64,000 nucleotides of DNA from Pseudomonadota bacterium (GTDB lineage Bacteria; Desulfobacterota; Desulfobacteria; Desulfobacterales; RPRI01): assembly GCA_043825875.1 (NCBI GenBank), contig JBDRRF010000031.1, positions 32,001-96,000 of the forward strand. The letters run 5' to 3'. Positions 11,135-49,304 of this stretch are shown here, piece after piece; positions within the stretch are counted from its first letter, which is position 1, and each line of letters opens with the position of its first letter. The notes under the pieces were generated by a model. The model searched no databases. It saw only the letters and a program-made list of their open reading frames with translations, and was not told where the DNA came from. A program made the position numbers and the translations under genes.

Positions 11135-11276
11135 GAGCCAGTTTCAAAACGCCCCATTTTGGCCGATCTCTGCGTTGAGCTCAAATTTCAATCCTCGAAA
11201 TACTAAATGTATTCCTGTGGGTGAAATTTTCTCCCGCCTTGAGCTTGACCAAACTGAAACGTTTTGAAAGTGGCTC
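11135..11276 (+). mobile_element. 142-bp MITE, family A, copy 1 (TSD CATG)
   Basis: TIRs GAGCCAGTTTCAAAACG / CGTTTTGAAAGTGGCTC; CATG at 11131-11134 and 11277-11280. Confidence 0.92.
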
Positions 11277-11303
11277 CATGTTATAAGAATTATTCAATAT
11301 ATC

Positions 11304-11435
11304 GAGGCAATTGCATAACGTTTTGTCATGCCCGAATGTTTTTGTCGGGCATCCATGATTTCAGTCAGTTACAAACTGGATTCCCACCCAGAAACGTTGC
11401 GGGAATGACAGAATAGGAAGTTTTGCAATTGGCTC
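11304..11435. mobile_element. 132-bp MITE, family B, with REP-like core (TSD TATC)
   Basis: TIRs GAGGCAATTGCATAAC / GTTTTGCAATTGGCTC; TATC at 11300-11303 and 11436-11439; internal GTCATGCCCGAA..TCGGGCATCC and GGATTCCC..CGGGAATGAC. Confidence 0.8.
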
Positions 11436-11464
11436 TATCTATCTCTTATTAATGGGAGGAACAG

Positions 11465-12523
11465 GTGGATAGTCCAAAGAAGTTCAAAGCAGTTAAGGTT
11501 GTAATCGTCGCCATATGCGCGATATTTATTTGTTTTATTACGGCAACAGGCGTATTCCCCGTAAATAATAAAAACGGAGCCCCGGAAGCCGTACCCTTCA
11601 ATCAGAGACTTTATCTGTATAATTTCTATGGACTATCAGCAGTAGTCGGAGGTCATATATGGGCGGCAGGCGCTTTTGGAACTATAATTTACTCCGGGGA
11701 TGGCGGGGAGACATTTCACAGGCAAGCATCCGGAATAAAATCGGAAATTTTTGATATAACTTTTCTTGATAGCGATAACGGCTATGCAGTTGGCCGTTTC
11801 GGGGTGATTCTTAATACAGTTGACGGAGGACATACGTGGACCCGTCAAGAAAGTGGTGTTACCAACACTCTTAGCAGCATTTGTTTTATAAACACAACTA
11901 CAGGTTGGATTGCGGGCGGATTTAACACTATATTGCATACCAAAGACGGCGGTAAAACCTGGGAGAAGATGGGGGAAAAGGTGGACAGGATGCTAAACCG
12001 CATATTTTTTGCCGATGCAAATCATGGTTGGGCAGTTGGAGAGTTCGGAACGATTTTAAAAACTACAGATGGCGGAACCAATTGGACCGAAACTAAAAAT
12101 CCTGAAGGGAAAAATCTTTTCGGTCTGTATTTTAATGATGCAACAAATGGATGGGCTGTTGGAATGGATGGTTGCATCATTACCACAAAAGATGGCGGAA
12201 CCAATTGGGAGATCACAAAAACGCCGGCAAATGAAACTCTCTATGGGATAACTATGAACGGCAAGAAGGGTTGTGCTGTTGGAATAAAAGGGATTTACTT
12301 CATCACGGAAGATGGAGGAGAAACCTGGGACATATCTCCTTATGATATCGGTGTGAGATCATGGCTGGGAGCAATAAAGTTTATTGATGAACAAAATGGT
12401 TTTGTATGCGGCGGTGGCGGAACAATCAAATTAACAAAAGACGGCGGTAAGACCTGGAATAGCCCGAAAGCCCTGTATCAGGATGAAGGTGTCTGCAATT
12501 TACCGGATAGGAAAAACACATAA
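11465..12523 (+). CDS. YCF48/BNR-repeat beta-propeller protein
   Basis: Repeated GWAVG..G.I..T.DGG.TW motifs; N-terminal hydrophobic anchor. Confidence 0.9.
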   Translation: MDSPKKFKAVKVVIVAICAIFICFITATGVFPVNNKNGAPEAVPFNQRLYLYNFYGLSAVVGGHIWAAGAFGTIIYSGDGGETFHRQASGIKSEIFDITFLDSDNGYAVGRFGVILNTVDGGHTWTRQESGVTNTLSSICFINTTTGWIAGGFNTILHTKDGGKTWEKMGEKVDRMLNRIFFADANHGWAVGEFGTILKTTDGGTNWTETKNPEGKNLFGLYFNDATNGWAVGMDGCIITTKDGGTNWEITKTPANETLYGITMNGKKGCAVGIKGIYFITEDGGETWDISPYDIGVRSWLGAIKFIDEQNGFVCGGGGTIKLTKDGGKTWNSPKALYQDEGVCNLPDRKNT

Positions 12524-12589
12524 AGTAAAACTTGGCATTAATCGACTTAAAATGGATCGGAGTATATTTTACAGGAGGTATCAGGGAAC

Positions 12590-14995: not shown

Positions 14996-15120
14996 GGATA
15001 ATCTCATTTATCCGACTGAAGAAAGAATCACCAACTACCAGCATAGATAGTGGTTTAATGAAAGACAATTAAAATATCATTATCAATGGAAGTATTATAC
15101 CAAACAATAAGGAGGGGCCT

Positions 15121-15930: not shown

Positions 15931-16107
15931 ACATAAAAGAGTTCCAAACAATAATAAAAGGAGAAATTATGAATGACGTGAGGCAATAGGTATCACGTCT
16001 TGAATAGTTAATTATTACAGATTGGAAAAGTAATATGTTCCGAAAGGCATATTTGCAATTAGGCTATGAATATCTCTGGCCCTTAGTACTCCATTTCACA
16101 ATCCCGA

Positions 16108-16183: not shown

Positions 16184-16278
16184 AATACTCACCCGAATTA
16201 AGGTAAATGCTATATAAAGACTGATCAAATGAGTAACGACATCATATATAGTTGTTTCAGAAAATTTGAGAGGTAAAA

Positions 16279-17864: not shown

Positions 17865-18006
17865 GAGCCAGTTTCAAAACGCCCCATTTTGGCCGATCTC
17901 TGCGTTGGATGAAAATTATAATCCTCATAATCCTCAATGTATTCCTGCGGTTAAAATTTTCTCCCGCTTTGAGCTTGATCAAACTGAAACGTTTTGAAAG
18001 TGGCTC
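17865..18006 (+). mobile_element. 142-bp MITE, family A, copy 2 (TSD CCTT)
   Basis: Same TIRs; CCTT at 17861-17864 and 18007-18010. Confidence 0.92.
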
Positions 18007-19622: not shown

Positions 19623-19764
19623 GAGCCACTTTCAAAACGTTTTAGTTTGGTCAAGGTCAAGGCGGGTTAAAATTTTAACCGCAGGAATACATGTAGTATT
19701 TCGAGGATTAAAATTTTATCCCAACGCAGAGATCGGCCAAAATGGGACGTTTTGAAACTGGCTC
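19623..19764 (-). mobile_element. 142-bp MITE, family A, copy 3 (TSD TCAG)
   Basis: Reverse orientation; TCAG at 19619-19622 and 19765-19768. Confidence 0.92.
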
Positions 19765-20259: not shown

Positions 20260-20605
20260 TTTTAATCCCTCAATCCGGTTAATGAATTCCTATTTTTGAT
20301 ATTATGCTACGTTCCAACATTTCCCAGCAAGCTATATTTCTTTCTGCTGCGTCAAAACTATTTCACGGAGTGGAGCAGTTACAAAATGCATCTTATAAAT
20401 AGCCTTATTGATTGTAACCTATGACATTCTATGATATTTGAAAAAAACTGGGATTTTAAATAAGCCTGTCCATAATATGCTGTTTTTGTATAAAATGTCA
20501 CCTGATAAAATATATTTATTAATAAGATATCTCAACTCAAAAATAAAATACTCCATATAATTGATAAATAAAATATTCCGTTAGCTTATTTTAGGAGAAA
20601 GCAAA

Positions 20606-22579
20606 ATGACAAAACTATACGGATATACAGGTAAAATCTTAAGTGTAGATTTATCGTCCGGAAAGCTTACCTCCATACCAACTATGAATTATGCGGATAA
20701 ATATATTGGAGGCAGGGGGATTGCTGCAAAGATTTTCTGGGATGAAGTGCCACCGGAAGTTGGTGCATTTGATCCCCAAAACCGCTTGATATTTATGACC
20801 GGTCCCCTTGCAGGAATTCCCGGATTAGGTGCATCAAGGTGGACAGTATGTAGTAAATCTCCTGTTACTATCCCAGACCATTTTACCTACAGTAATTTTG
20901 GAGGAAGATGGGGTGCTCAGCTGAAATTCGCCGGTTATGATGGGATTGTGGTTTATGGCAAATCTGATAAACCCGTTTATCTTTTCATCAAGGATGGCGT
21001 AGCCGGAATAAAAGACGCCTCTCATTTATGGGGCAAAAGTACTCTGGCAACACGGGAGATTTTGAAGGGAGAACTAGGAGAAAAAGTGGCCGTGGTCGCA
21101 TGTGGCCCTGCCGGTGAAAACGGCGTAGTCTTTTCTACTCTTATTGCTGATAACGATGCCAGCGGCGCCAAGGGCTTCGCATCAGTTATGGGGGCTAAAA
21201 ATCTCAAGGCCATTGCTGTTATGGGTACAACAAAACCCGTTGTAGCTGATCCAAAGAGATTAAACGATCTGAGAAGATATTTTTTTAAATTGTGGGAGGG
21301 TTCACGTGCTCTTAACGACAGAAGAGCTGAAATCGGCAAGCTGAAAAAGGATAACTGTTACGGCTGTATCGGTGTTTGCAACAGATCCAAACGCGAATTA
21401 GAAGACGGCACAATGCATAAATCGCTTTGTGCACCTCCTACCGTGTTTTATATTGTTGGTTCAATGTATTATGGCGATATGAATAAGATGCCGGCTAATG
21501 AAATTCCGATGCGCGCCGTTAAATTGCTTGATGAATATGGTATCGATGTTCATTCTCTCCTGCCTATAATGATGTGGATCTTAAGTTGTGCAAAGGCGGG
21601 TATCTTAACTGAAAAAGAAATAGGACTTCCACTATCTAAATTCGGTAGCCTGGAATTTATAGAAGCCTTATTAAAAATGATTTCATACAGGGAAGGCTTT
21701 GGAGATATTCTTGCACAAGGACTTTTTCAAGCAGCCGAATCTGTTGGAAAGGGATCTGTGGAAGTACTCGAAAATTTGCCGTTTGCTTTTGGCATGGACG
21801 CACGTCTCATGCCTTATTGTCCAAGACAGTTCCCCGCGCATGGTCTTTTATATGCAATGGAGCCAACGCTGCCGATAGAACAGGTGCATGAAACGGCATT
21901 TATGATTTACAAGTGGATTTTCTGGGCTGACAGAAATTATGCGGACAAAAAAAGTCTTATAACCTACAGCGGAAATCCTAATGTTTCCAGTGAAGTATTT
22001 CGCAAAGTCGCCAAAAGGTTTTGGGGAAGTACGCAGGCCGCTGATTTTTCCACCTATGAGGGTAAGGCAATGGCTGCAAAAATGATACAGGACAGGTCAT
22101 ATTTAAAAGAAAGCCTGGGTCTTTGCGAATGGCTCTGGCCGGCGTTGACGACTAATTCGGGGGATTACGTCGGAGACCCTTCCGTTGAAAGCAAGGTCTA
22201 CTCGGCTGTTACAGGAAACAATGTTGATGAACAAGAACTTTATCGTATCGGCGAAAGAATCTTTAATCTCAGAAGAGCAATAACTACAAGAGAAGGAAGA
22301 AAAGGAAGAATATATGATACTATTCCCCGGGCAATGTTTTCCGTTCCGCTGAAGGAAGGTACCGACAATCCCAGAGCGCTGGCGCCGGGAAAGGAGGGGG
22401 AAATCATTTCCATGACCGGTGCTGTTGTAGACAAAGATAAGTTTGAAACCTTGAAAGATGAATATTATCAACTCAGGGGCTGGGATGTGGCGACCGGTCT
22501 CCAGACAAAGGCCAAGCTGGAAGAGCTTGATCTTCAAGACGTAGCCAAGGATCTGACTCAAAGGGGGCTTTTGAGTTAA
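20606..22579 (+). CDS. Aldehyde:ferredoxin oxidoreductase family (tungsten pterin) protein
   Basis: GYTGKILSVDLS; IGGRG; LKFAGYDGIV; GPAGEN; VMGAKNLKAI; CYGCIGVC; SLGLC; YYQLRGWD. Confidence 0.9.
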   Translation: MTKLYGYTGKILSVDLSSGKLTSIPTMNYADKYIGGRGIAAKIFWDEVPPEVGAFDPQNRLIFMTGPLAGIPGLGASRWTVCSKSPVTIPDHFTYSNFGGRWGAQLKFAGYDGIVVYGKSDKPVYLFIKDGVAGIKDASHLWGKSTLATREILKGELGEKVAVVACGPAGENGVVFSTLIADNDASGAKGFASVMGAKNLKAIAVMGTTKPVVADPKRLNDLRRYFFKLWEGSRALNDRRAEIGKLKKDNCYGCIGVCNRSKRELEDGTMHKSLCAPPTVFYIVGSMYYGDMNKMPANEIPMRAVKLLDEYGIDVHSLLPIMMWILSCAKAGILTEKEIGLPLSKFGSLEFIEALLKMISYREGFGDILAQGLFQAAESVGKGSVEVLENLPFAFGMDARLMPYCPRQFPAHGLLYAMEPTLPIEQVHETAFMIYKWIFWADRNYADKKSLITYSGNPNVSSEVFRKVAKRFWGSTQAADFSTYEGKAMAAKMIQDRSYLKESLGLCEWLWPALTTNSGDYVGDPSVESKVYSAVTGNNVDEQELYRIGERIFNLRRAITTREGRKGRIYDTIPRAMFSVPLKEGTDNPRALAPGKEGEIISMTGAVVDKDKFETLKDEYYQLRGWDVATGLQTKAKLEELDLQDVAKDLTQRGLLS

Positions 22580-22609
22580 AGCTTTGCAATTTAAATGGAG
22601 GGCATGACA

Positions 22610-23668
22610 ATGACAAAGGAAAGAGAAGCCAAAAGTGATGTGGAGTTAAGTGAAGAGATGAGTCACGCGGGGGAGTTGCGCCCGGGCGGTGACTTTCATG
22701 AGGTTCACGCCCAACTTTTCATGGGCGAGTCCCAGGGCTATGACATCTGTTTGGTGCCCAATGCCTGGCATGTTGGGGGTGGGAAAAAGGGAAAGTGGCG
22801 TGTTGATGACGCAATGATTTGCCAAACCACTTTTATTATAGTCCCAAAGGATTATCGGGGCAAGATGCATGATAACGACTTTATCAGTAACCGCCAGGAT
22901 GCCACCGAGTGGCAGGATGATGTTCGAATAGAAGAAAAGGGCGAAAGCGTAATCTGGCATGCGGGTAACCGCCAATACATCTCCCGCCCGCCTTATTGGG
23001 AGGTTAAAGGTGAGCATATGGGCGTGGATTGCGATTTGATTCTTGGAGGTCTGGGGAACACTACGCGAACCTTCGGAGCATGGTCTGACTTGAACAAGAA
23101 CGGGAAGGCCGGATACGACCATCGTTGTTGGGCTGAGGGCACAATAACCGTTGGAGGAAAGAAGCATACCCTTGAAAAGGGATTTGGCATCCACGAACTC
23201 ATGGCCTTCGGCAATTCATGGGATCAAATGGTAATCATGCGCAATCCCTATTACTGGATAGTCTCTATGAATGAATCAATGCAGATATATCTTGTGAATG
23301 TACCCGGTCTTGGTTTCAGTTATGGCCGCGTTTATCTGGATGACAAGGAGATCCCTTTTGGAAAGGGTGAAGTAACCATAGATGAGCTGGAGCTATGGAT
23401 TGACCCTAAGACAGGCATGCAAGCTCCAATCCGTTGGCATCTTAATATGAATTCTGCGCATGGCGTTTTGGACATGGAGATGACCGCCTACGCGAGGGGC
23501 TTGTACTGCGTCATGACTAGTGGGGGCTATACCATGCGCAATTGCTTTATGATACGCAGCAACGGTCGGTTTTTTCTTCCTACCGGACAAAGTGTTCCCA
23601 TTCAAGATATGATGACGTATATGGAATGGGGCAGATCCGCCATGCCTCTGGAAGGAGGAACAACTTAA
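22610..23668 (+). CDS. Hypothetical beta-rich protein (AttH/CrtC/tocopherol-cyclase-like fold suspected)
   Basis: Trp-rich, AEGTITVGG and WIDPKTG..P..W.L motifs; co-oriented within the AOR operon; visibly higher GC. Confidence 0.5.
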   Translation: MTKEREAKSDVELSEEMSHAGELRPGGDFHEVHAQLFMGESQGYDICLVPNAWHVGGGKKGKWRVDDAMICQTTFIIVPKDYRGKMHDNDFISNRQDATEWQDDVRIEEKGESVIWHAGNRQYISRPPYWEVKGEHMGVDCDLILGGLGNTTRTFGAWSDLNKNGKAGYDHRCWAEGTITVGGKKHTLEKGFGIHELMAFGNSWDQMVIMRNPYYWIVSMNESMQIYLVNVPGLGFSYGRVYLDDKEIPFGKGEVTIDELELWIDPKTGMQAPIRWHLNMNSAHGVLDMEMTAYARGLYCVMTSGGYTMRNCFMIRSNGRFFLPTGQSVPIQDMMTYMEWGRSAMPLEGGTT

Positions 23669-23710
23669 TACGGATTACATCTCATACTGTTGATATATGG
23701 AGAAAAGTAA

Positions 23711-24976
23711 ATGAGTTTTTCAAATGAGAAAGAACTTGAAATGGTTTTCAAGTACCCTCTGTTTGAGGCATTGGCGCACCGTAGAACGAGAAGGTTTCCC
23801 TTAGGGGGCACTCTTGCTAAAGGCTTGTTGCAACATAGTTCACAGCAAGAACCGCTGCCGCTAAATGATCTCGAAACAGCTTTGTTATGCTGGGCCGGAG
23901 CCGGTATAAACGGAACGGTTACCGGTGATTCCCCCACAGATATCGAGGACCAGGGAACTGCATGGGGAACATGGGTGGGAAGAACTGTTCCGGCAGCCTG
24001 TAATGTACAAAACACCAAGATCTTCTTTACAAACGATACGGGAACTTTTTTATACAATCCCCAAAAAGCCACCAAAGCAGTAGAAATTGAGACCGAGAAA
24101 GACCGGCAAAAAATCATGAACTATTTTAAAAATGATTGTGTCAAACTTTTCGATGGAAGAGCGGAATTTATTCCTGCCGGAGGTTATGGTGCGACAAATT
24201 GGAATATAGGCAAGCCGGGGACTACTGTTTTCATGCCCATAGTAGACCAGTCTGAAGAGTATCTTAATGTTTTGTTTGTTCTTTTTCAAAGTGAAGGTTA
24301 CAAAATAATAAATGACCTAAAGGGAGGAGAACCGGCAGGTATAGGAAAGTGGATTGAAAAAGGTGCAATCAAAGGTCCGGAAGTTCCTTTTTCTTCTTTT
24401 GAGTTCAATGCCCTGATGATCAATATTGCCCCGGTTTACGCTATGCTTCAGAACATAAGTCTGGCTGCCGAAGCAATGGGGCTTGGTCAGGTTGTATTCG
24501 CAGGTCATTCGGGAGTCATGATGCTCGGAATTACTCCGTTTACAAAAGGCCTTGGATTTCGATCCGCAAAAACCAAAGATGGAAATCTAAATGCTGTGGG
24601 GTTGGATGGTATTTTCCAGCCATACTGTCCGCCCTATTACAAGGATATGGGAGAGGCTGTGGATGCTTTTGTAGAAAAGAAGTTCGGTCATGGCGGAATA
24701 TTTGATTCGAATTATCCAGGTGCGGTACCGTTTAAAGATGATAAAGAGTTTCTTGCCAAATATGAAAAACCGTCTTCAGAGGTAATAAATATCGTAAAAG
24801 ACTATGCAAATTATGTATACGACAATTACGGCAGATTCCCCGGAACCTTTGATACTATACTTTTAAGGACGTGGATACAGGTTCATCATCTGGATCTGGA
24901 ATTTTACGACAAGCATATGGTTCCAGGCCTGATAAATGATACACACCGAAGCCATATGAAACATTGGCATAAATAA
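23711..24976 (+). CDS. Nitroreductase-like (FMN-binding) uncharacterised protein
   Basis: ALAHRRTRRF; PLPL...E...L.WAGAG; RTVPAA; MLQNISLAAEAMGLG. Confidence 0.65.
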   Translation: MSFSNEKELEMVFKYPLFEALAHRRTRRFPLGGTLAKGLLQHSSQQEPLPLNDLETALLCWAGAGINGTVTGDSPTDIEDQGTAWGTWVGRTVPAACNVQNTKIFFTNDTGTFLYNPQKATKAVEIETEKDRQKIMNYFKNDCVKLFDGRAEFIPAGGYGATNWNIGKPGTTVFMPIVDQSEEYLNVLFVLFQSEGYKIINDLKGGEPAGIGKWIEKGAIKGPEVPFSSFEFNALMINIAPVYAMLQNISLAAEAMGLGQVVFAGHSGVMMLGITPFTKGLGFRSAKTKDGNLNAVGLDGIFQPYCPPYYKDMGEAVDAFVEKKFGHGGIFDSNYPGAVPFKDDKEFLAKYEKPSSEVINIVKDYANYVYDNYGRFPGTFDTILLRTWIQVHHLDLEFYDKHMVPGLINDTHRSHMKHWHK

Positions 24977-25155
24977 CTGACATTTCCCAAAGCAACGTAA
25001 AATCTGAGCTTTTTGATTGAAAGGAATAAACTTTTTTAGTTTTTTAAATTGACGCTGTGTGTTTAATTAATTCCTGTTAAAGAACGGGTATTATTGCTGT
25101 AAGTAAAGATAAAATTACAACCTGCCATTTTATGCCAAATAATAAATAGTTAAGA

Positions 25156-25297
25156 GAGCCAGTTTCAAAACGTCCCATTTTGGCCGATCTCTGCGTTGGG
25201 CTCAAATTTCAATCCTCGAAATACTAAATGTATTCCTGTGGTTGAAATTTTCTCCCGCCTTGAGCTTGACCAAACTGAAACGTTTTGAAAGTGGCTC
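25156..25297 (+). mobile_element. 142-bp MITE, family A, copy 4 (TSD AAGA)
   Basis: Same TIRs; AAGA at 25152-25155 and 25298-25301; element end supplies part of the neighbour's stop codon. Confidence 0.92.
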
Positions 25298-26066
25298 AAG
25301 ATCTTGGCCTTTTAGCTCCTCTGTTAGCTCGATCATTCTTCGAATCTTTCTTGTTTGGCAGGCGCGGCTCGCCACCACCAGGGGGCAGAAGCTTCTTGTC
25401 CTCCGAAACAACCCATACAAAACGCGACTGCGCTTTACTTCCTTTATAGGCCGGAACCCTGAAACGGCGCACATGGAATCCGCACCAAATCAAGAGCCGC
25501 TCGAATTTCTTATTCGGCTCGGCCGACCACACAGACAGGCACCCCTGTTCGCTCAATGCATGACGGCAGGCCATGATTCCTTCACTGCTGTATAAACGCC
25601 GATTACGTGAATCAGTTATTGCACTGGGGCCATTATCGATATCTATCAGAATCGCATCGAATCTGCTTTTAGAACCTGAGATAAGCTCAACAATATCTCC
25701 CGTCTCAATAGTAACCCGTTCGTCCTTTAGGGGATGGTCGTTTAGTTTTCCGAAATACTCACGATTCCATTCTACTACAGCACCCAACAGTTCACCCACC
25801 AATACTTTGGCGTTGGGGTTAAGCATATCGAGAGCCTGGCGCAAAGTATAGCCCATACCCAAGCCACCGATTAGTATTCTGGGAGCCTTCTGACCAACCA
25901 GATGCGCACAACCCAGTCGCGCCAGCTCCAGTTCCGACTCATTTTGGCGGCTGTGCATCAAATCATGGCCGTTGATATGGATAGAGAAATCCAGACCATG
26001 CTGATAAAGCACCATCTCGCCTCCATCCGGGGTCCGGGTTGTATCTATTTTTACTCTCGGGTTCAT
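25296..26066 (-). CDS. Spermidine-synthase-like SAM-dependent methyltransferase-fold protein
   Basis: LMHSR...SELELA; ILIGGLGMGYTL; FDAILIDIDNGP; SVWSA. Confidence 0.8.
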   Translation of the reverse strand: MNPRVKIDTTRTPDGGEMVLYQHGLDFSIHINGHDLMHSRQNESELELARLGCAHLVGQKAPRILIGGLGMGYTLRQALDMLNPNAKVLVGELLGAVVEWNREYFGKLNDHPLKDERVTIETGDIVELISGSKSRFDAILIDIDNGPSAITDSRNRRLYSSEGIMACRHALSEQGCLSVWSAEPNKKFERLLIWCGFHVRRFRVPAYKGSKAQSRFVWVVSEDKKLLPPGGGEPRLPNKKDSKNDRANRGAKRPRS

Positions 26067-36975: not shown

Positions 36976-38535
36976 ATGATCTGGACATTACTTGATGAAA
37001 AAATAGCTGCCCCGGCAGCAGGAACCACGATAAAACTTATCAAAGATAATGATGTGGATATTACTCTGTTAAGGCAGGTTCCCTACTTCTACTCAAAAAA
37101 CAATCTTATCATGCCATTAAGGATAAATGACGGTTTTTTGGTTGCCGCTGTATATGGTAACAACGGTCTTTTGGCTGCTGTTGAACTGGCGGGAAAATAC
37201 GGACTTAAAGCACATCCTTTAAGAGCGGAGCAAGGCATTATTACTGAGGCTATCAGTAAATTTTATGGCCAGATCAGTAATGCCGAAGAAGTTATGGACA
37301 ATATGGATGCAGAGGATCTGTCCTCTGTGGCCACCGAGTTTGAGAAGCCGCGGGATATCCTTGAGCTTACGGAAGATGCCCCTATCATAAGGCTTCTTAA
37401 TGCCCTTTTCCAGCAGGCATTCAAAGAAAGAGCAAGCGACATTCATATAGAGCCTTACGAAAAAGATCTTGAAGTCAGAATGCGAATTGACGGGATACTG
37501 CACAAGATTTTGCATCCTCCTAAAATTATCCAGGAAGCCCTGATAAGCAGGGTAAAAATTATGGCAAATCTTGATATTGCTGAAAAAAGACTTCCACAGG
37601 ATGGCCGGATAAGGCTTCTTATCGGAGGCCAGGATATCGATCTTAGAGTATCAATTATTCCTACATCATTTGGAGAAAGAGCAGTATTAAGGCTGCTCGA
37701 TAGAAAACAGGGGCTTATCGGTCTTTATGAAGTAGGTCTTGATAAAAAAGATGAGGTGAGATTTGAAAAACTGCTTGAAAATACAAGCGGTATCATCCTT
37801 GTAACCGGACCGACAGGAAGCGGCAAAACAACAACCCTTTATGCTGCTTTAAACAGAATCCATACTGAAGGAAGAAACATTATTACTGTAGAAGATCCTG
37901 TGGAGTATCAATTAAAGGGTATAGGGCAGATGCAGGTTAATCCAAAAATAGGCCTTACATTCGCATCCGGATTAAGATCAATATTAAGGCAGGACCCTGA
38001 TATTATAATGGTCGGTGAAATACGTGATTTTGAAACTGCTGAAATTGCAATCCAAGCCTCTCTTACGGGGCATCTTGTTTTAAGCACTCTTCATACCAAT
38101 GATGCTGTAGCAGCACTTGCACGGCTTGCCGATATGGGAATGGAGCCTTTCCTTGTTTCTTCTTCCCTTGTTGCTGTTGTTGCCCAGCGGCTTGTCAGAA
38201 CTATTTGCCCTCATTGCAAAGAAGTTTATCAGCCGCCATCTTCGGAAACGGCGTATTTCCCTTTACCTGTTAAACAATTATACAAAGGTAAAGGATGCAG
38301 TGAATGCAGACAAAGCGGCTATCTTGGAAGAACGGGGATTTATGAAATTCTTTCCATAGATAATAAACTTAGACAAATGATTGCGGCGCGTGTTGATGCG
38401 CAGACTATCAAAGATTATGCTGTTTCCAAAGGAATGAGAACCCTTTATTCGGAAGGCGTTGATAAGGTTATGAAAGGCATTACTACATTGCAGGAAATCT
38501 TGAGAGCTACGCAGAAAGACTATGCCGATATTTAA
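36976..38535 (+). CDS. gspE: Type II secretion ATPase
   Basis: ASDIHIEP; LDIAEKRLPQDGRI; GPTGSGKTTT; LRQDPDIIMVGEIRD; CPHC...CSEC. Confidence 0.95.
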   Translation: MIWTLLDEKIAAPAAGTTIKLIKDNDVDITLLRQVPYFYSKNNLIMPLRINDGFLVAAVYGNNGLLAAVELAGKYGLKAHPLRAEQGIITEAISKFYGQISNAEEVMDNMDAEDLSSVATEFEKPRDILELTEDAPIIRLLNALFQQAFKERASDIHIEPYEKDLEVRMRIDGILHKILHPPKIIQEALISRVKIMANLDIAEKRLPQDGRIRLLIGGQDIDLRVSIIPTSFGERAVLRLLDRKQGLIGLYEVGLDKKDEVRFEKLLENTSGIILVTGPTGSGKTTTLYAALNRIHTEGRNIITVEDPVEYQLKGIGQMQVNPKIGLTFASGLRSILRQDPDIIMVGEIRDFETAEIAIQASLTGHLVLSTLHTNDAVAALARLADMGMEPFLVSSSLVAVVAQRLVRTICPHCKEVYQPPSSETAYFPLPVKQLYKGKGCSECRQSGYLGRTGIYEILSIDNKLRQMIAARVDAQTIKDYAVSKGMRTLYSEGVDKVMKGITTLQEILRATQKDYADI

Positions 38536-39697
38536 ATATAAAGGGTATAATTCCAAGGGATCGGAAATAACAGGTACTATAGAAGCACAGGGGCGTTTTG
38601 ATGCCATTTCTGCTTTAAAGGCAAAACTGATCTTTCCAACAGATGTCCTGGAGGTAACCAAAAAGCCGATAAGAAGTATATTTCAGAAAAAAGATGATAC
38701 TTTTCTTCCGGATTTTACAAGAAATCTTTCGATGCTTCTTGCTTCCGGAGTTCAGTTGATGGATGCTCTGCAATCACTTTCTGATGAATATACCGGATAT
38801 TACGGGGATTTGCTGGTTCAAATAAAAGAAAGAGTATCTGCCGGCATGAGTCTGCATAAAGCACTGGAGGTTTATGGGGATTTTTTTCCGGAGTATTATA
38901 TTAATATGGTTCAGGCCGGCGAGACAAGTGGCTCTTTAGATATGGTTCTTGTAAAGATTGCCGATTTTCTTGAAACGCAGGCTTTCATTAAAGCAAAAGT
39001 TAGATCGGCAACTGCATACCCTCTTTTAATGGCCGGTGTAAGCTTATTGATTCTCTTCTTTCTGTTTTCTTTTGTAATGCCGAAGATTGTAAGAATATTT
39101 TCAGAAACAGGCGGTTCTCTGCCTTTTCTTACAGCAGCAATTATTGCGGTGAGCAATATTTTTTCCAAATACTGGTGGGCAATCATTGCGATATTTTTTT
39201 CGACAGCCTGGTTGTTAAGAAAGTTATTTAAAAAATACAGAACACAAATTGATGGCATTATTTTAAAACTGCCCGGTAATATTATTCAGAGCCTGTATTA
39301 TGCTAGATTTGCAAGGACAATGGGTGCTCTTCTTGAAGGGGGTATTCCATTACTTAAAGCGCTCAAACTTTCTGCAAAATCTATTGGCAACAGAAAACTG
39401 GAGCTTAATGTTCTCGATTCCGTAGAAAAGGTAGCAGGCGGACAGCAGATGTCTTCTTCTCTCTCCGGATTTCCGCCGCTTTTATTAAGACTTATATCTA
39501 CCGGTGAAAAAAGTGGCAATCTTGCTCAGACAATAAACAGAGCGGCTTTGTCTTATGAACAGCAATTTGCCAGAAAAATTGAAAAGGCATTATCTCTTTT
39601 TGAACCTGCAATGGTACTTTCAATGGGGGTTGTGGTTTGTATTATTGTTCTTGCTGTTTTACTTCCAATCTTTCAGATGAATCAATTGGTAAAATAA
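38522..39697 (+). CDS. gspF: Type II secretion inner-membrane platform protein
   Basis: MVQAGETSGSLD; AYP; GEKSGNL; FEP; LLPIFQMN. Confidence 0.93.
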   Translation: MPIFKYKGYNSKGSEITGTIEAQGRFDAISALKAKLIFPTDVLEVTKKPIRSIFQKKDDTFLPDFTRNLSMLLASGVQLMDALQSLSDEYTGYYGDLLVQIKERVSAGMSLHKALEVYGDFFPEYYINMVQAGETSGSLDMVLVKIADFLETQAFIKAKVRSATAYPLLMAGVSLLILFFLFSFVMPKIVRIFSETGGSLPFLTAAIIAVSNIFSKYWWAIIAIFFSTAWLLRKLFKKYRTQIDGIILKLPGNIIQSLYYARFARTMGALLEGGIPLLKALKLSAKSIGNRKLELNVLDSVEKVAGGQQMSSSLSGFPPLLLRLISTGEKSGNLAQTINRAALSYEQQFARKIEKALSLFEPAMVLSMGVVVCIIVLAVLLPIFQMNQLVK

Positions 39698-39698
39698 T

Positions 39699-39840
39699 GA
39701 GCCAGTTTCAAAACGTCCCATTTTGGCCGATCTCTGCGTTGGTTGAAAATTTTAATCCTCGAAATACTCCATGTATTCCTGCGGTTAAAATTTTCACCCG
39801 CCTTGATCTTGACCAAACTGAAACGTTTTGAAAGTGGCTC
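39699..39840 (+). mobile_element. 142-bp MITE, family A, copy 5 (TSD TAAT)
   Basis: TAAT at 39695-39698 (includes gspF stop) and 39841-39844. Confidence 0.92.
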
Positions 39841-39877
39841 TAATGCTTAGGATTTTACGTAATTATTGGGGTGAGAA

Positions 39878-40318
39878 ATGCAAAAAAAATATATTTCGAT
39901 AAAAGGCTTTACTTTAATTGAACTTGTTGTTGTGGTTTTTATTCTAAGTCTTTTAGCAGCGATAGTAGCTCCAAAGATTATCGGAAGAACTGATGATGCA
40001 CGCATTACAGAAGCAAAAGTACAAATTAAAAATTTTGAGACTGCCTTAAAACTTTTTAAAATTGATAATGGCTTTTATCCGGATACTCAACAGGGACTTG
40101 ATGCTCTTTCTATAAAGCCTGAGACAGGTCGAATACCCAATAACTACAGAACGGGCGGATACCTGGAACAGAAAAAGATACCGCTTGATCCGTGGGGGAA
40201 TTCATACATGTACATATCTCCAGGCATAAACGGAGATTTTGATATCATGAGTTTCGGAGATGATGGCAAAGAGGGCGGAGAAGGCAAGGATGCGGATATT
40301 AAAAATTGGGAAATGTAA
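39878..40318 (+). CDS. gspG: Major pseudopilin
   Basis: GFTLIEL; YPDTQQGLDAL; DPWGNSY; SFGDDGKEGGEGKDADI. Confidence 0.95.
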   Translation: MQKKYISIKGFTLIELVVVVFILSLLAAIVAPKIIGRTDDARITEAKVQIKNFETALKLFKIDNGFYPDTQQGLDALSIKPETGRIPNNYRTGGYLEQKKIPLDPWGNSYMYISPGINGDFDIMSFGDDGKEGGEGKDADIKNWEM

Positions 40319-40760
40319 GGATAGAGGTTTTACTCTTATAGAATTGATCGTTGTAGTTTTTATCATTTCTGTAATGCTCATGGTATCTTTCCCATATATT
40401 GGCTTCCGTGAAAGCGGCAAGTTAAAATCCGAAGCAGCGGTTTTAGCATCGGTTCTGCGTTATCTTAATGATAGTGCAGTGACTATGAAAGAAACATATG
40501 CGGTTAAATTTGATCTGGGCCAAAAAACAATCAGATATAAAGGCCCTGAAGGTGTAAAAACAGAGAAAATTGATGATCTTTCAAGTGTTTTGTTGCAAAC
40601 CAGAGGTATAATATCCGATGGAGAAGTAATTGTATTTTATACTCCATTGGGTGCTTCAGAAAGTTTTATGATTAATTTAAAACGTGATGATTATACTATT
40701 TCCGTTAGTTCAAATTCTCTGAGTGGCAGAATAAGTATAATAACACAGCATAAGGTTTGA
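40290..40760 (+). CDS. gspH: Minor pseudopilin H
   Basis: RGFTLIEL prepilin site; follows gspG. Confidence 0.8.
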   Translation: MRILKIGKCKDRGFTLIELIVVVFIISVMLMVSFPYIGFRESGKLKSEAAVLASVLRYLNDSAVTMKETYAVKFDLGQKTIRYKGPEGVKTEKIDDLSSVLLQTRGIISDGEVIVFYTPLGASESFMINLKRDDYTISVSSNSLSGRISIITQHKV

Positions 40761-41098
40761 TGATGCACAAAGGGTTCACTTTCCTTGAAATCATGATAAG
40801 CCTCGCAATTATAGGAGGACTTCTTTTTACCCTGATTTCTTCCCTTAATTACCATCTCGGTGTAGCTGAGAAGCAGATAGTCTTAACTACTATCGATAGG
40901 TTGGCACATGATAAGATCTATGAAATGGAGAAGAATCCTTCCGAAGATCGCGGAAATTTTCCAAAACCTTTTTCCGACATTCAATATGAAACCAGGGTGT
41001 CGGATTCAACATTTCCGGGTATGCTGGAAATCGGAGTAACTGTAATAAGTGGGAAAGAAAAACTTATACTATCTGAAATAATAACCGGGAAAAGATAG
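40757..41098 (+). CDS. gspI: Minor pseudopilin I
   Basis: KGFTFLEIMISLAII; operon position. Confidence 0.8.
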   Translation: MMMHKGFTFLEIMISLAIIGGLLFTLISSLNYHLGVAEKQIVLTTIDRLAHDKIYEMEKNPSEDRGNFPKPFSDIQYETRVSDSTFPGMLEIGVTVISGKEKLILSEIITGKR

Positions 41099-41117
41099 TT
41101 GCAGAGAAAGGGGCAAG

Positions 41118-41756
41118 GTGAAAGAATCAAGGACTAAAGGTTTCACATTATTAGAAATCCTGATATCGATAGCCATATTGTCTGTGGTACTTACAGCTCT
41201 TTATAATACCTTTTTTCTTTCTCACAAAGCGCTTGCAGCCGTTGATGGAACCCTGCTTAAACTTCAGGAATCCCGTGCTTTCGTTGATATATTAAAAAGA
41301 GAGATAGAATCCGTAATTTATTCTCGTGATAACAGCTACACTGTGTTCAGGATGGATGACAGAGATTATTATGGTCGTCAGGCCTCCCAGCTTACCATGA
41401 GCTCATTGTCTCCTTTAACAAACGGTATGGCTAAAATAAACTATACCACGGAAGAAAGAGATGGCAGATTGATTATAACAAAAGAAATAAAATCAGCATT
41501 TTTACAACCGGATTTATCTCAAAAAACACAAAGCCATAAAATTGATATGATAGAAGATGTTCAATCTTTTACCGTAGAGTGCAAATATGGGAACCGCTGG
41601 GTAAAAACATGGGACAGCGCATTGACAAAAAATGTTCCGAACGAGATAAAAATTTCAGTTACGTTTTATATTTCAAATAAAGAAACACGGGATAATACCG
41701 GCAGACTATTTGTGATTTCCGATATAGCAAAACCCAGAATAGGGAAGAACTTATAA
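41118..41756 (+). CDS. gspJ: Minor pseudopilin J
   Basis: KGFTLLEILISIAILS; WVKTWDS...P..IKI. Confidence 0.85.
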   Translation: MKESRTKGFTLLEILISIAILSVVLTALYNTFFLSHKALAAVDGTLLKLQESRAFVDILKREIESVIYSRDNSYTVFRMDDRDYYGRQASQLTMSSLSPLTNGMAKINYTTEERDGRLIITKEIKSAFLQPDLSQKTQSHKIDMIEDVQSFTVECKYGNRWVKTWDSALTKNVPNEIKISVTFYISNKETRDNTGRLFVISDIAKPRIGKNL

Positions 41757-42668
41757 ATGGCTTCCAATAAGGGTATGGCTCTTATACTGACGCTGATGAT
41801 CCTTGCGATAATGACAACAATGGTTGTTGAGTTTGTGCATGAAGTATATTCAACCAATGCAATTTTAAATAACTGGAGAATCAGCCGCCAACTTTCGTTA
41901 ACTGCAAAATCAGGAATTACTATTGTTAAAAAAATAATTTCCGATAATCAGTCACGTTATGCATATACATATCCGGGTAAATATGAAGTTCCTTTGGGAA
42001 ACATATTTGGTGAAAATGCTGATGGGTCCGGCGGCAAGGTTTTTGTGAATGTTGAGGATGAGAACGCAAAATTTAATGTAAACAGTATTGTCTGGCCTAA
42101 TGGAACTACTAATGAATCTTCAATAGATTCATTTAAAAGGCTTTTAAAAAATATTAAGCTTGATGAGCAAGTTGCATACAGGGTTGCTGACTGGATAGAT
42201 CCTGACAGCGAATCAAGGATGGGAAGATCCGAGCAGGGTGCTAAAAACGCTTATCTGGACAGCATTGATGAGCTAAAACTTATAAATGGAATGGATTCTA
42301 AAACGTACGAAGTATTAAAGCCTTTTATTACGGTATATGGTGCTGAAGGTGTTACATCTAATATTATAAATATCAATAGTGCACCATTGCCGGTAATTAT
42401 GGCCCTGAATGCCGAAATCACTAAAGATCTTGCAGAAAGAATTATAAAGTACAGAGGTCTTGAGCCTCTCGAAACTCCAAGTGATCTGGTTAAAATAGCA
42501 GGCTTTGAAGGTTCTTTGGGGCAGTCACTTATCGGTATGCTTATAGTAAAAGCCGTAAATTTTAAAATAACATCATTTGCAGAGGATAATAAGATAAAGA
42601 GAATTATAGAATGTGTTGTGGAAAATAAAGGCGATAAATTTTTAACCAAATACTGGTGTGAAAGGTGA
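41757..42668 (+). CDS. gspK: Minor pseudopilin K
   Basis: KGMALIL; EDENAKFNVN; ADWIDPD; SIDELKLINGM; ININSAP. Confidence 0.9.
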   Translation: MASNKGMALILTLMILAIMTTMVVEFVHEVYSTNAILNNWRISRQLSLTAKSGITIVKKIISDNQSRYAYTYPGKYEVPLGNIFGENADGSGGKVFVNVEDENAKFNVNSIVWPNGTTNESSIDSFKRLLKNIKLDEQVAYRVADWIDPDSESRMGRSEQGAKNAYLDSIDELKLINGMDSKTYEVLKPFITVYGAEGVTSNIININSAPLPVIMALNAEITKDLAERIIKYRGLEPLETPSDLVKIAGFEGSLGQSLIGMLIVKAVNFKITSFAEDNKIKRIIECVVENKGDKFLTKYWCER

Positions 42669-42701
42669 AAATAGCCAAATCGTGAATAACGTTATAATCA
42701 T

Positions 42702-42843
42702 GAGCCAGTTTCAAAACGCCCCATTTTGGCCGATCTCTGCGTTGGGCTCAAATTTCAATCCTCGAAATACTCGATGTATTCCTGTGGTTGAAATTTTCGC
42801 CCGCCTTGAGCTTGACCAAACTGAAACGTTTTGAAAGTGGCTC
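42702..42843 (+). mobile_element. 142-bp MITE, family A, copy 6 (TSD TCAT)
   Basis: TCAT at 42698-42701 and 42844-42847. Confidence 0.92.
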
Positions 42844-42862
42844 TCATGCAAATTGGAGCATT

Positions 42863-43975
42863 ATGAAAAAAATCGGTTTTATTGATATTCATCCGGGCGG
42901 TTCTATTTCTACTTTTTGCATAAAACAGGATGAAAGTGAGAAATGGCAGGATAATACTCTTGTTTATATTTTCAAAGAGCATTCCGGAAAAATTGAGCTT
43001 GACAAAACACTTGAATATTCATCCGATGAGAATTTAGAGGATATCAATGATTTTTATTTGAGTATCCCCATGGAGTTATTAAATTTCAGGATAATTAATC
43101 TTCCATATTCAGATAAGGAAAAATTGGGTAAAGCAATCCCTTTAGAACTTGGAAGCCTTATTGAAGGTGGTGATCCTGAAGATATTGTTTTTGAAACAGT
43201 TGTTCTTAAAAACACCGATTCCGGATTTGATATACTGATAGTTTATGCCGACAAAAGCTGCATTAATGCTGTAATTGAAAAGCTTGCTCTGAAAAATATT
43301 GATCCACGTATTATAACATCAATAGATCTTGCTAATATCATTCAAATGGGTGAAGGCACACTTTCTTTTGTTGAACGCCTCGCAAGTAAGGAAAATAAGG
43401 AAGAAATTGACAGAACAGGTTCAGCAGCAAATGAACTTTTTCACCCGACCATAAATTTAAGATCCGGTCCTTTAGCCTATACAAAAGATATTGCCAGAAG
43501 AAAACGTATACTGAAAAAAACAGTGATTTTAAGTTTTTTACTGGCATTTATTATAAATGCCAACATTGTTATCAATCTGACAATAACAAATAAAGATATT
43601 TCTTCACAGAAGAAAAGTTTAAGGAAAATGTATGCAGCTTTGTTTCCGGAAGAAAAGAAAATAGTTAATGAAGTATATCAGTTAAAATCTCATATCAAAG
43701 AGTTGAAAAAAAAGAGTGATGCCTTAACAGGAGTAAATCCAATCGATTTTCTTCTAAAACTTTCTCACGAACAAATAGGAGGAGTTGTATATAACGAGAT
43801 CTGGTTCGAAAAAGGATTTATTAAAATGAAGGCCGAAGCAGTTTCAATGGAAGTTGTTGACAAGGCCAGGGGGAAGTACTCAAAATACTTATCAGATGTT
43901 TTGATCACAGATATTAAACCGGCAACCGACGGAAAGGTTTTTTTTACTGTTGTTGCTAAAGAAAGGCCTGAATAA
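42863..43975 (+). CDS. gspL: Type II secretion protein L
   Basis: Actin-like FIDI / FRIINLPY..KEKL..AIPLEL; INLRSGPLAY; single TM; GGAG RBS before ATG 42863. Confidence 0.8.
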   Translation: MKKIGFIDIHPGGSISTFCIKQDESEKWQDNTLVYIFKEHSGKIELDKTLEYSSDENLEDINDFYLSIPMELLNFRIINLPYSDKEKLGKAIPLELGSLIEGGDPEDIVFETVVLKNTDSGFDILIVYADKSCINAVIEKLALKNIDPRIITSIDLANIIQMGEGTLSFVERLASKENKEEIDRTGSAANELFHPTINLRSGPLAYTKDIARRKRILKKTVILSFLLAFIINANIVINLTITNKDISSQKKSLRKMYAALFPEEKKIVNEVYQLKSHIKELKKKSDALTGVNPIDFLLKLSHEQIGGVVYNEIWFEKGFIKMKAEAVSMEVVDKARGKYSKYLSDVLITDIKPATDGKVFFTVVAKERPE

Positions 43976-43977
43976 AA

Positions 43978-44526: not shown

Positions 44527-44563
44527 TTAGCCCATATAAAACGGATAACAAGTTTAACTAAAA

Positions 44564-45322: not shown

Positions 45323-45328
45323 AAGGTG

Positions 45329-46687: not shown

Positions 46688-46743
46688 CCCTTGTCCTTAA
46701 ATATTGTGACTATATATCCTGACAATATATGAACCGTTTTTCT

Positions 46744-48849
46744 TTATTTACTGCTTATCGGCAAAAACACCCTAAACATTGACCAGTTATTTTCTTTACT
46801 TTCAACCTCTATCCTGCCGCCATGAGCTTCAACAATTGTTTTACAGTGAAACAGACCGATTCCCATGCCCTGTTTTTTTGTTGTCCTGAAAGGCCGGAAC
46901 AGATCTTTTGCTATAAATTCCTCAGACATTCCGCAACCATTGTCATAGATAGAGATTTGTGCCCAATTTTCTTTACAGGCAGTTTCAACTATAATTTTAC
47001 CATCCTGTTCTATGGCATCACAGGCATTCATAAGAAGATTCTCGAGTACTTTATTAATTTGTTCAGGATCTATAAAAAGCAAAGGAACATTGTTTAAGTT
47101 TTGCAAAACAGACCCTTGGGTATATCCTTTAATATCAGATACGGCAGATGTAATCATCTCATTAAGATCAGTCTTTTGTACAGAAAGTTCCAGCTTTTGG
47201 CTTAAAAGAGAGAGGCGGCTGCTCATGCTGTTTATCTTTGATACGCTTTGTGAAATTGTTTTAAGAGCATCGGCACGAAATTCAGGGTTATCTATAAGAA
47301 CAGGTAGGTTCTGTGTTACAAGAGAAAGTTTTGTCGCAAGATTTTTCAGGTCATGCATAAAAAAAGCAGACATGGCCTGGAATGCCTCTAGCTCTTTTAC
47401 TTTGCGAAGATGTTCCGAAAGCCTCAAATTCTGCAAGATAGCAGCCGCCTGATCGGCAATGGTTCTAACAAGTTCAGTTTCTTCAAAAGAAAGGGGCTCA
47501 TAAAAAACTTTTTCGCTTAACGTCATAATCCCGATAAGTTGACCTGCGGCATTTAGCGGGACACAGTATCTTATACTCGATTCGCGTGTTTCTGCATCAT
47601 AGATGCGGTTTAGAGACTTCACCCAGCTGGCTGTATTTCCTTTAAGATCAAGCAAAACAGATTGTTCTTCCATTGTGCGGATAAGATCAGCAATATTATA
47701 ACCTGAAAAACTCATTGTATCTGCTTTTGCATCCGTAAATACTGTTGAACCTTCTAAAGACATCCTTTCCTGTTTCTCATCAACTATCCAGATGCTTACG
47801 GATAGAATCTCCATTGTTTCAGAGACCATGTTTACAATAATGCTGCAAAGATCTTTTGTTTGTGTAACAGAAGCGGTTCTGTTTGTAAAATCTCCCCAGA
47901 TTTTCCGGTAGTCATATTGGGGCCGTTTGAAATGACGGCTTATAAAACGTTTTCTTTTTACCCGCAGACGGTCTGAAAGCAGCAGACTTATTATTACGAT
48001 TAAAGCTACAAATGCTAAAAATATTATTAGATAAGTATTATCGATCCATGCAAAATGAACGGAAAGCCATGTCAGTGTTCCTACTAATATAAAGTAGATG
48101 CCCGCGATAAGCATTGTAAATGAATTATATAAAAGCTGATGGGAAAGCTGAATACTGGCATTAAGAGGTTTCCCACGTAATAGTGACCGTAAAATAAGGA
48201 TTGCGGCTACAAGAAGCGCTCCTTGATTAATAACATAAAGACCTGTAGTTACACCTTTGAAAAGCAGTACATAGCTATATGTGAAAAGTCGTATTCCTAT
48301 CATAGCTCCCAAGCCGAGAAACATAAATTTGGTTTGCCAGCGTATATGACCTGTGGAATGTCGGAATGTTCTTTCAAAATTCATCAGAATCAGGATTGCA
48401 GATAATATCCAGATAAGATGCCATATATATCCTGAATTTCCGATTGCTATAAAAAGTTCTGAGGTTTTTGTTAAAACGGGTTCTCCCGAAAAGAAAGAGT
48501 TTCTGAAAAAAATGGCTATTAATACAGGCAGAATAAAAAATGAAATAATGACCCATTTCCATTTTGATATCTGTTCCATATAATTAGCTCGGGCAAAGCT
48601 TATGCTGAAAAGAAGCCAGACAGATGGCAGAAATGAAGCGGTTATTGACTGGAAATGCTGTCGAATTAAAAAATTATCTATAGATAATGACTGGAAAAGA
48701 AACCCGGTTAATGCGGCATTTACTGAACATAAAATCATGCCTGCTGCAAAAATACGATGAATAAAAGAGCGAGGTTCTCGCCACAGCGCAAGAAGCGCAA
48801 TTCCTGCTGCTACCGCAGCCGCTACATATGAGATAGTTAAGGTAAACAT
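46744..48849 (-). CDS. prsK: PEP-CTERM system histidine kinase
   Basis: Multi-TM N-term; RFISRHF...YDYR..W; GAF; SAFFMHDLKN; FRPFRTTK..GMGIGL. Confidence 0.88.
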   Translation of the reverse strand: MFTLTISYVAAAVAAGIALLALWREPRSFIHRIFAAGMILCSVNAALTGFLFQSLSIDNFLIRQHFQSITASFLPSVWLLFSISFARANYMEQISKWKWVIISFFILPVLIAIFFRNSFFSGEPVLTKTSELFIAIGNSGYIWHLIWILSAILILMNFERTFRHSTGHIRWQTKFMFLGLGAMIGIRLFTYSYVLLFKGVTTGLYVINQGALLVAAILILRSLLRGKPLNASIQLSHQLLYNSFTMLIAGIYFILVGTLTWLSVHFAWIDNTYLIIFLAFVALIVIISLLLSDRLRVKRKRFISRHFKRPQYDYRKIWGDFTNRTASVTQTKDLCSIIVNMVSETMEILSVSIWIVDEKQERMSLEGSTVFTDAKADTMSFSGYNIADLIRTMEEQSVLLDLKGNTASWVKSLNRIYDAETRESSIRYCVPLNAAGQLIGIMTLSEKVFYEPLSFEETELVRTIADQAAAILQNLRLSEHLRKVKELEAFQAMSAFFMHDLKNLATKLSLVTQNLPVLIDNPEFRADALKTISQSVSKINSMSSRLSLLSQKLELSVQKTDLNEMITSAVSDIKGYTQGSVLQNLNNVPLLFIDPEQINKVLENLLMNACDAIEQDGKIIVETACKENWAQISIYDNGCGMSEEFIAKDLFRPFRTTKKQGMGIGLFHCKTIVEAHGGRIEVESKENNWSMFRVFLPISSK

Positions 48850-49038
48850 TTTTAAGTTAGATTAAAGATTTAAGTATCTTTGTTGATATATCCGATTTGA
48901 ATTTTTATATATCTGGGTTTTTGACTCTCCATTATAGTCAACAATGTGCAGACTTTATAGCATACAGCACGGGAATGCAAGTGTCATTTTAATGTTATAA
49001 TTCAGGCAGGATTATTATTTCTTATTTTCTTCTAATCA

Positions 49039-49068
49039 TTGACCTTTTATCTTCTTATGTGGTAATAA
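49039..49068 (+). promoter_or_regulatory. Possible sigma70 promoter for thiolase
   Basis: TTGACC, 18-nt spacer, TGG-TAATAA. Confidence 0.35.
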
Positions 49069-49162
49069 TCTCCCGGCTTAATTTTTCAAAGATGCATGAA
49101 TCGTTTTAATAAAACGATATTTTCTGATGATTAATTAATAAACATGTTAAACAAAAATATTA

Positions 49163-49304
49163 GAGCCACTTTCAAAACGTTTCAGTTTGGTCAAGGTCAA
49201 GGCGGGTGATAATTTTAACCGCAGGAATACATGGAGTATTTCGAGGATTAAAATTTTCACCCAACGCAGAGATCGGCCAAAATGGGACGTTTTGAAACTG
49301 GCTC
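49163..49304 (-). mobile_element. 142-bp MITE, family A, copy 7 (TSD ATTA)
   Basis: Reverse orientation; ATTA at 49159-49162 and 49305-49308. Confidence 0.92.

Follow-up and report, generated by a model that had tools for sequence, protein, structure and literature searches.

The 64,000-nt stretch of DNA analysed here (the window, part of contig C31 of assembly G000) carries seven copies of a 142-bp element that belongs to a family of miniature inverted-repeat transposable elements (MITEs), probably mobilized by a transposase that is supplied from elsewhere and acts with a 4-bp stagger, an enzyme of IS5 type being the likeliest candidate, and the family being one branch of a superfamily whose members share an inner module. 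The repeats are a real and recently active MITE family, and elements of this kind are well known; what we regard as an unusual variant deserving description is a conserved module held between exchangeable ends that come with duplications of differing lengths.

A search of the window with the end pattern GAGCCASTTTCAAAACG returned 14 exact matches, against 0.05 expected from shuffled sequence, and the 14 form seven inverted pairs, each enclosing an element of exactly 142 bp. The 17-bp inverted ends, GAGCCA[G/C]TTTCAAAACG, are exact in all 14 instances, and when the seven copies are aligned together with 20 bp of the DNA on either side, identity starts and stops precisely at GAGCC...GGCTC. The 4-bp direct repeat around the element differs from copy to copy; judged by the G or C at position 7, two copies (19623 and 49163) are reversed relative to the other five. 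The copies are as follows.

11135..11276, plus strand: MITE copy, 142 bp, duplication CATG at 11131-11134 and 11277-11280; starts 79 bp past the stop of open reading frame (ORF) 9740-11056
17865..18006, plus strand: MITE copy, 142 bp, duplication CCTT
19623..19764, minus strand: MITE copy, 142 bp, duplication TCAG
25156..25297, plus strand: MITE copy, 142 bp, duplication AAGA
39699..39840, plus strand: MITE copy, 142 bp, duplication TAAT; 2 bp past the stop of ORF 38522-39697
42702..42843, plus strand: MITE copy, 142 bp, duplication TCAT; 34 bp past the stop of ORF 41757-42668
49163..49304, minus strand: MITE copy, 142 bp, duplication ATTA

Pattern search and alignment thus confirm the original prediction for this DNA, which had described seven 142-bp copies with 17-bp ends and these duplications. 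It had also stated that no copy disrupts a reading frame, and none of the seven window copies lies in the body of a long ORF.

Copies, duplications and empty sites

The window holds one copy per 9 kb, from which hundreds per genome had been extrapolated, and the genome bears this out. When the element was compared by blastn with the G000 assembly (4.77 Mb, 39% GC, 118 contigs, none under about 2 kb), 371 matches were found, 279 of them full length; merged, they give 304 loci, or about one per 16 kb, a density that the window exceeds. Sixty of the 236 contig ends fall within a copy, and the element therefore breaks the assembly. Pairing of ends identified 199 complete copies, of which 158 measure 142 or 143 bp, 26 measure 164 or 165 bp, 11 measure 186-188 bp and 4 are of odd sizes; the longer forms are extended in their left arm by a 22-bp insert, present once or twice.

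That the element is a non-autonomous transposon leaving 4-bp duplications was likewise part of the original prediction. Among the 191 G000 copies with enough flanking sequence, the 4-bp duplication is exact in 127 and has a single mismatch in 32, and 7 more have a duplication of 5 bp, whereas the same test applied at offsets of 1-4 as a control finds only 0-2 copies. The duplicated 4-mers are AT-rich and without consensus.

Sites that lack the element in relatives reduce to a single 4-mer, as transposition with a 4-bp duplication predicts. The closest sampled relative, G008, belongs to the same genus, and its aligned blocks are 84-97% identical to G000. At the position of copy 25156 it has the empty site GTTAAGA joined to TCTTGG (GTTAAGATCTTGG), with one AAGA. 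At that of copy 49163 the G008 flanks adjoin, 146 nt (142 + 4) being missing and one 4-mer kept (AATA, compared with ATTA in G000), and G011 and G013 have no element there. The site of copy 11135 is empty in G008, which has a copy of its own 26 bp further on in the opposite orientation. Copies 19623 and 42702 are present at the same sites in G008 (141/142 and 140/142 identical, respectively); G013 has an empty site of matching length for the former, and neither G011 nor G013 has an element in the intergenic region matching the latter. For copy 39699, a 9152-nt contig of run X2, from a related strain about 97% identical, joins 39697 to 39861 without the element, and the intergenic region of G008 that corresponds to copy 17865 contains a copy 88% identical to it, of which the left flank alone could be matched.

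We extended the comparison with G008 to 17 copies on four other G000 contigs, 11 of which have both flanks on one G008 contig and 6 of which could not be placed. Exact empty sites with a single 4-mer (CCCT, TGTA, TCAA, ATTA and TATT) were found for 5 of the 11 resolvable copies; another 4 sites lack the element but differ by small indels, one is occupied by a copy in reverse orientation and one gives no clear reading. Since 9 of the 11 are thus absent from the sister species, most insertions postdate the split of the two species. First-look candidates number about 300 in G008 and 395 in G011, with near-identical copies, and the element has been recently active in several lineages.

Two further observations concern sites that are occupied in both species. 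At the one just mentioned with a reversed copy (L320:401-542 on G000 contig C79; L328 on G008 contig C125), the G008 copy is longer and lies at the same point, which would be accounted for either by a second hit on the same site or by inversion of a near-palindromic element. The two window copies found at the same sites in both genomes (19623 and 42702; L020 and L317) differ at 3 of 284 nt, compared with 46 of 943 in their flanks; constraint could produce so low a divergence, in a sample as small as 284 nt, and gene conversion or recent exchange would account for it just as readily.

By a crude ORF caller, 152 of the 191 G000 copies fall between genes, coding sequence making up 86% of the genome, and the 11 scored as inside an ORF involve short spurious ORFs or over-extended start calls. 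The element itself has no evident coding capacity, as only short spurious ORFs cross its copies. The median distance is 32 bp to the 3′ end of a gene and 144 bp to a 5′ end, and at 12 places in the genome a stop codon overlaps an element end by 1-2 nt. One of the genes next to a window copy (minus-strand ORF 25296-26066) ends TCT-TGA, the GA coming from the last two bases of the element and the T from the flanking A at 25298; at the empty site in G008 the same gene ends TCT-TAA. We saw no bias in the orientation of G000 copies relative to neighbouring genes. Between divergent gene pairs the orientations are 11 plus and 33 minus in contig coordinates, a skew that is probably chance, because the contigs are arbitrarily oriented and symmetry predicts an even split.

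Taken as a MITE, the element can be given a simple life history. It encodes nothing itself, and a DDE transposase made elsewhere would bind the 17-bp inverted ends, excise or copy the element, and join it to a target cut with a 4-bp stagger, the repair of which would leave the 4-bp duplication. The targets would be AT-rich and of no fixed sequence, and presumably only intergenic insertions, mostly just past stop codons, would survive. Such an element is ordinary selfish DNA; it interrupts assembly, marks very recent change in the genome and sometimes supplies part of a stop codon. It can serve directly as a marker in strain typing, and it calls for caution when sulfate-reducer metagenomes are binned.

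The insert of the 186-188-bp variants (e.g., C31:12710, 186 bp, and C38:41879, 187 bp) includes CATAAGCGCTAAC, which is identical to nucleotides 1-13 of the 17-nt inverted ends (CATAAGCGCTAACTTAA) that bound a 1377-bp insertion sequence (IS) that encodes a 407-aa DDE_Tnp_1 transposase (L002:1237-2613, G000 contig C33). To judge from this match, the insert may be a remnant of the end of that IS nested in the MITE.

One inner module, several kinds of ends

In other genomes, the similarity of copies to the element is limited to its inner part. Searched for in one genome per species, a 23-letter core motif gave at least 114 loci, nearly all in records titled Desulfobacterales, Desulfobacteraceae, Thermodesulfobacteriota or Deltaproteobacteria; the invariance of the core by which these loci were chosen is built in, whereas the conservation of the ~70 letters around it is not. 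The inner module, of ~100 nt, is common to at least seven types of ends with duplications of 2, 4, 5 and 6 bp, and total length across the branches is 138-152 bp. The window element belongs to the first of the types listed here.

Type A: GAGCCAGTTTCAAAACG, 4-bp duplication, exact in 6/8 in other genomes
Type B: GAGACCTTTGCAAAACG, 5-bp duplication, 16/26 exact and 4 with one mismatch
Type C: GTGCCCATCCATAAATGG, 6-bp duplication TAnnTA, 9/10 exact for C and D together
Type D: GTGCCTGAACGAAAACTG, 6-bp duplication TAnnTA, counted with type C
Type E: GAAGCCGTTTTAAAAACG, flanked by TA
Type F: GGAGGCTGTCCGAGAATGG
Type G: GAAGCTAACCCAGATAG

Copies of types C and D occur in other genomes at loci L114, L122, L155, L049, L052, L123, L092, L096 and L151. 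When the module was sought without regard to its ends, it turned up in 53 of the 401 genomes sampled from the phylum, with 150-300 candidates in some. In G000, 260 cores comprise 212 of type A, 8 of type B and 40 unclassified, most of which, on visual inspection, are long variants or type A copies that lie at contig ends. Judged by these comparisons, type A is one branch of a Desulfobacterota-wide superfamily with a conserved inner module. The usual view of a MITE is that of two IS ends and filler; here the filler is conserved and the ends are variable, across many Desulfobacterota families. Some older type B copies in G000 (C64:2359, C76:114160 and C91:35265, with ends GAGACCTTTGCAAAACG) have the 22-bp left-arm insert of the long type A forms, and the shared insert suggests recombination or exchange between branches A and B.

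A single strand of the element (copy 39699) folds as one long imperfect hairpin of -57.8 kcal/mol, with z = -10 relative to shuffled sequences, and the apex of the module is AATCCTCGAAATAC...GTATTCCT. The pairing has been maintained by compensatory change: 47 alignment cells are altered on both sides of a pair, compared with 10.3 +/- 2.7 in shuffles (a value reached by 0 of 500), and a control with slid partners gave at most 12 cells. Within G000, the paired columns 57 and 92 hold C-G 100 times, T-A 34 times, T-G 6 times and C-A 3 times. The apex is asymmetric, the asymmetry is conserved, and one conserved T.G position can pair on one strand only.

What the module does may be considered apart from how the element moves. 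A role in the propagation of the element itself is the answer we favour, and we would put its chances at about even; the module would then be a chassis kept for the aid it gives, for example by bringing the ends together or by binding a factor. Second in our ranking, and in our view unlikely, is a benefit to the host through action as an RNA or through protein binding. A broader proposal, which we offer tentatively and hold to be possible rather than probable, is that the ~100-nt hairpin, as a conserved cargo or chassis, has acquired the ends of different IS lineages again and again, has ridden several transposases through the phylum and has been kept for a sequence-specific action, whether binding of a protein or as an RNA from one strand; the element would then be a modular, end-swapping MITE and not a decayed IS. 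If this were true, the family would make it possible to test how non-autonomous elements pass from one partner transposase to another and acquire ends, and whether the hairpin serves transposition or the host.

Candidates for the transposase

With moderate confidence, we consider a small two-ORF transposase of the IS5 family (DUF4096 + DDE_Tnp_1) to be the likeliest partner, because the ends of the MITE resemble those of such IS. Genome G002, of the same genus, contains a 942-bp IS, now decayed, whose ends (GAGCCCATTTCAAAACC) agree with the MITE at 14 of 17 positions; relatives of its DDE ORF occur in 59 of the 301 genomes sampled from the order. An intact relative (L195:1027-1968) has a DUF4096 ORF (4e-29) followed, past a slippery site in a run of A, by a DDE_Tnp_1/DDE_Tnp_1_2 ORF (5e-19), an arrangement that we take to be the IS427/IS1031-like type of the IS5 family. 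Metagenomic members of this DUF4096 group, 64 in all, are 863-960 bp long and have ends (C)TAGAAGCYRTTTCAWA with variants such as GAGCCGGTTTCATA; one of them (L253) matches the MITE at 12 of 14 end positions. Sister branches of the MITE show the same affinity: the ends of type E (L132) are identical to those of the DUF4096 group at 20 of 20 positions, and type C ends match a 927-bp DUF4096 IS of the same genome at 14 of 18.

The resemblance is confined to the ends. Three members of the group, from the same bacterial order (L195:1027-1968, L017:841-1782 and L229:177-1103), have inverted ends like those of the MITE, GA(A)GCC.KTTTCAAAAC, but they encode a transposase, are flanked by TA..TA, and share nothing with the interior of the MITE. 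Given the TA flanks of these related IS, the real partner must differ from them in target stagger. On present evidence assignment to the IS5 family is reasonable, not proven. In the original prediction, the ends and 4-bp duplications had been read as signs of an IS5/IS1182-like partner, and for IS5 that reading is partly supported: the ends come close to those of IS5-family IS without being identical, at the 14 of 17 and 12 of 14 positions just given, whereas no complete element with the same ends came to light and the related IS proved to be TA-flanked. The MITE/IS difference in footprint recurs in branches C and D (10 MITE copies, 1 IS): L229, the sole DUF4096 IS with type C/D-like ends, is flanked by TTA, compared with the TAnnTA of the MITEs.

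A number of results weigh against the explanation we propose. The prediction that the window would hold no transposase with the element's ends was correct, and the rest of the assembly holds none either: the 8 DDE_Tnp_1 loci of G000 all lack the element's ends; only 5 pairs of ends 250-6000 bp apart carry a 4-bp duplication, each with one end off at 5 of 17 positions, a chance-level result; and none of 33 solo ends in G000 leads into a transposase, all being truncated copies or fragments of <=80 nt. The search for a full-length element with type A ends came back empty for G000, four sister genomes and the 64 metagenomic IS, in which exact type A ends numbered 0/64. An ORF search for DUF4096 gave no match at E <= 0.1 in any of the MITE-rich genomes G000, G008, G011, G013 and G016. 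All examined members of the DUF4096 group are flanked by TA..TA and have no 4-bp duplication, and the likeness between MITE and IS stops after the ends of about 17-20 nt, the inner module being unmatched inside any IS examined. Finally, individual copies show little sign of constraint, because private mutations are spread evenly along 145 aligned G000 copies, at 0.68-0.78 per column, with a weak dip at the apex (7 in 20 columns).

A multicopy IS of about 1 kb may be missing from the assembly. It could have been lost because the assembly contains no contigs under about 2 kb, which would explain the failure to find it and proves nothing. No PF13586 protein was found in G000, and just one of the 17 genomes of the genus has it. 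The element is shorter than 500 bp and non-coding, with inverted ends, a duplication of fixed length, many copies and empty sites, all of which are marks of a MITE; an autonomous element with the same ends is the one such mark that was not found. Many accepted MITEs are also without a known partner.

At two loci in G000 (C5:64864-64917 and C79:172105-172304), a type A end is followed by a different sequence of 40-60 nt, the two being 87% alike over 54 nt; by their sequence, they may be remnants of another small element with the same end.

Alternative explanations and known repeats

The mover might instead belong to a transposase family other than IS5 that gives 4-bp duplications, of which IS701, IS1380, ISH3 and ISAzo13 are candidates, the likeness to IS427-like ends being then convergent or ancestral. 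In favour of this alternative, the type A element duplicates 4 bp with no requirement for TA, in contrast to the TA flanks found throughout the look-alike IS group, and sister branches duplicate 5 bp (16/26 exact) and 6 bp (9/10 exact), lengths that are unusual for the IS5 family. We nevertheless judge it rather improbable, in view of ends that begin with GAG and match IS5-family ends at 12-14 positions and of sister branches that match DUF4096 IS as closely as types E and C do. One specific candidate, an IS630 partner for the TA-flanked sister branches, was rejected: in three of five genomes that carry such branches (types C, D and F), the IS630-type loci proved to have unrelated ends. Type A itself does not fit IS630/Tc1-mariner, since its duplications are 4 bp and not TA.

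A different kind of alternative gives the transposon a secondary part and makes the inner module the functional unit, either a structured small RNA or a host-protein site in the DNA, whose copies serve the host, for example as hairpins at the 3′ ends of mRNAs like repetitive extragenic palindromic (REP) or Correia sequences. Much of the conservation described above can be read this way: the sequence and its asymmetry are kept across at least seven end types and occur in 53/401 genomes, compensatory changes preserve a hairpin in which one conserved T.G is paired on just one of the strands, the median distance of copies past stop codons is 32 bp, and the copies shared by G000 and G008 have changed less than their flanks (3/284 nt and 46/943). 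A DNA hairpin needed only for transposition also predicts compensatory change, however, and several observations do not suit a host function. Copies show no orientation bias relative to neighbouring genes; the two scanned for signals (39699 and 42702, in a scan of 39500-43100) contain no sigma-70-like promoter or intrinsic terminator, counts being equal to the shuffled expectation; no Rfam family matches even at E <= 10; private mutations are almost evenly spread; and the sister species lacks 9 of the 11 copies that could be resolved, so that these are recent and dispensable. We doubt this explanation, and prefer the reading of the repeats as a transposase-dependent MITE family. Spread of REP-type or bacterial interspersed mosaic element (BIME)-type palindromes by a REP-associated tyrosine transposase (RAYT, a Y1 enzyme), or copying by recombination and not by transposition, would fit an element that is one long imperfect palindrome, intergenic and very abundant. 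Against it stand sharp ends, copy-specific 4-bp duplications (7/7 in the window, 127/191 in the genome) and empty sites that hold exactly one 4-mer, whereas REPs are 20-40 nt long, have no duplications and cluster around a RAYT gene; we give this account almost no credence.

The MITE family has counterparts among described bacterial repeats. Correia elements (CREE/NEMIS) are about 100-155 bp long, with inverted ends, a target duplication, a long hairpin and hundreds of intergenic copies, and we know of no partner transposase in their host. They have 26-bp ends, a TA duplication and an IHF site and are restricted to Neisseria. The type A MITE, compared with the description of Correia elements, differs in its 17-bp ends, its non-fixed 4-bp duplication and its phylum, and the 4-bp non-TA duplication speaks against membership of the Correia/NEMIS group. 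ERIC, RUP, Nezha and other bacterial MITEs resemble it in being small, non-coding, bounded by inverted repeats, multicopy and intergenic. ERIC, RUP and Nezha are each tied to one set of ends; the present module, unlike these elements as described, occurs with at least seven end types and with duplications of 2, 4, 5 and 6 bp. REPs and BIMEs are similarly abundant intergenic palindromes, often just past genes, but the element studied here is 142 bp long with inverted ends and duplications, a signature that the Y1-linked REPs do not have.

The element had not been recognized as a named one, and our searches agree. Rfam has no match to it across the window at the gathering score and none at E <= 10 in 7 loci, a plasmid collection has no match, and full-text searches of the literature found no description of such an element in Desulfobacterota or sulfate reducers. 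Mimicry of a CRISPR repeat was considered and rejected: the repeats of both G000 arrays (C88:23853-25204 and C108:14017-15367), which are of the GTTCCCCAC...GTGGGG type, are unlike the module.

Two features of the window lie outside the repeats. The sole Rfam match in the window at the gathering score is a tRNA gene at 5024-5097 (68.2 bits). Between copies 19623 and 25156, at about 20295-25062, G008 lacks a stretch of ~4.8 kb and has 74 bp instead; in G000 the stretch includes an aldehyde:ferredoxin oxidoreductase-like gene (20606-22579) and its neighbours.

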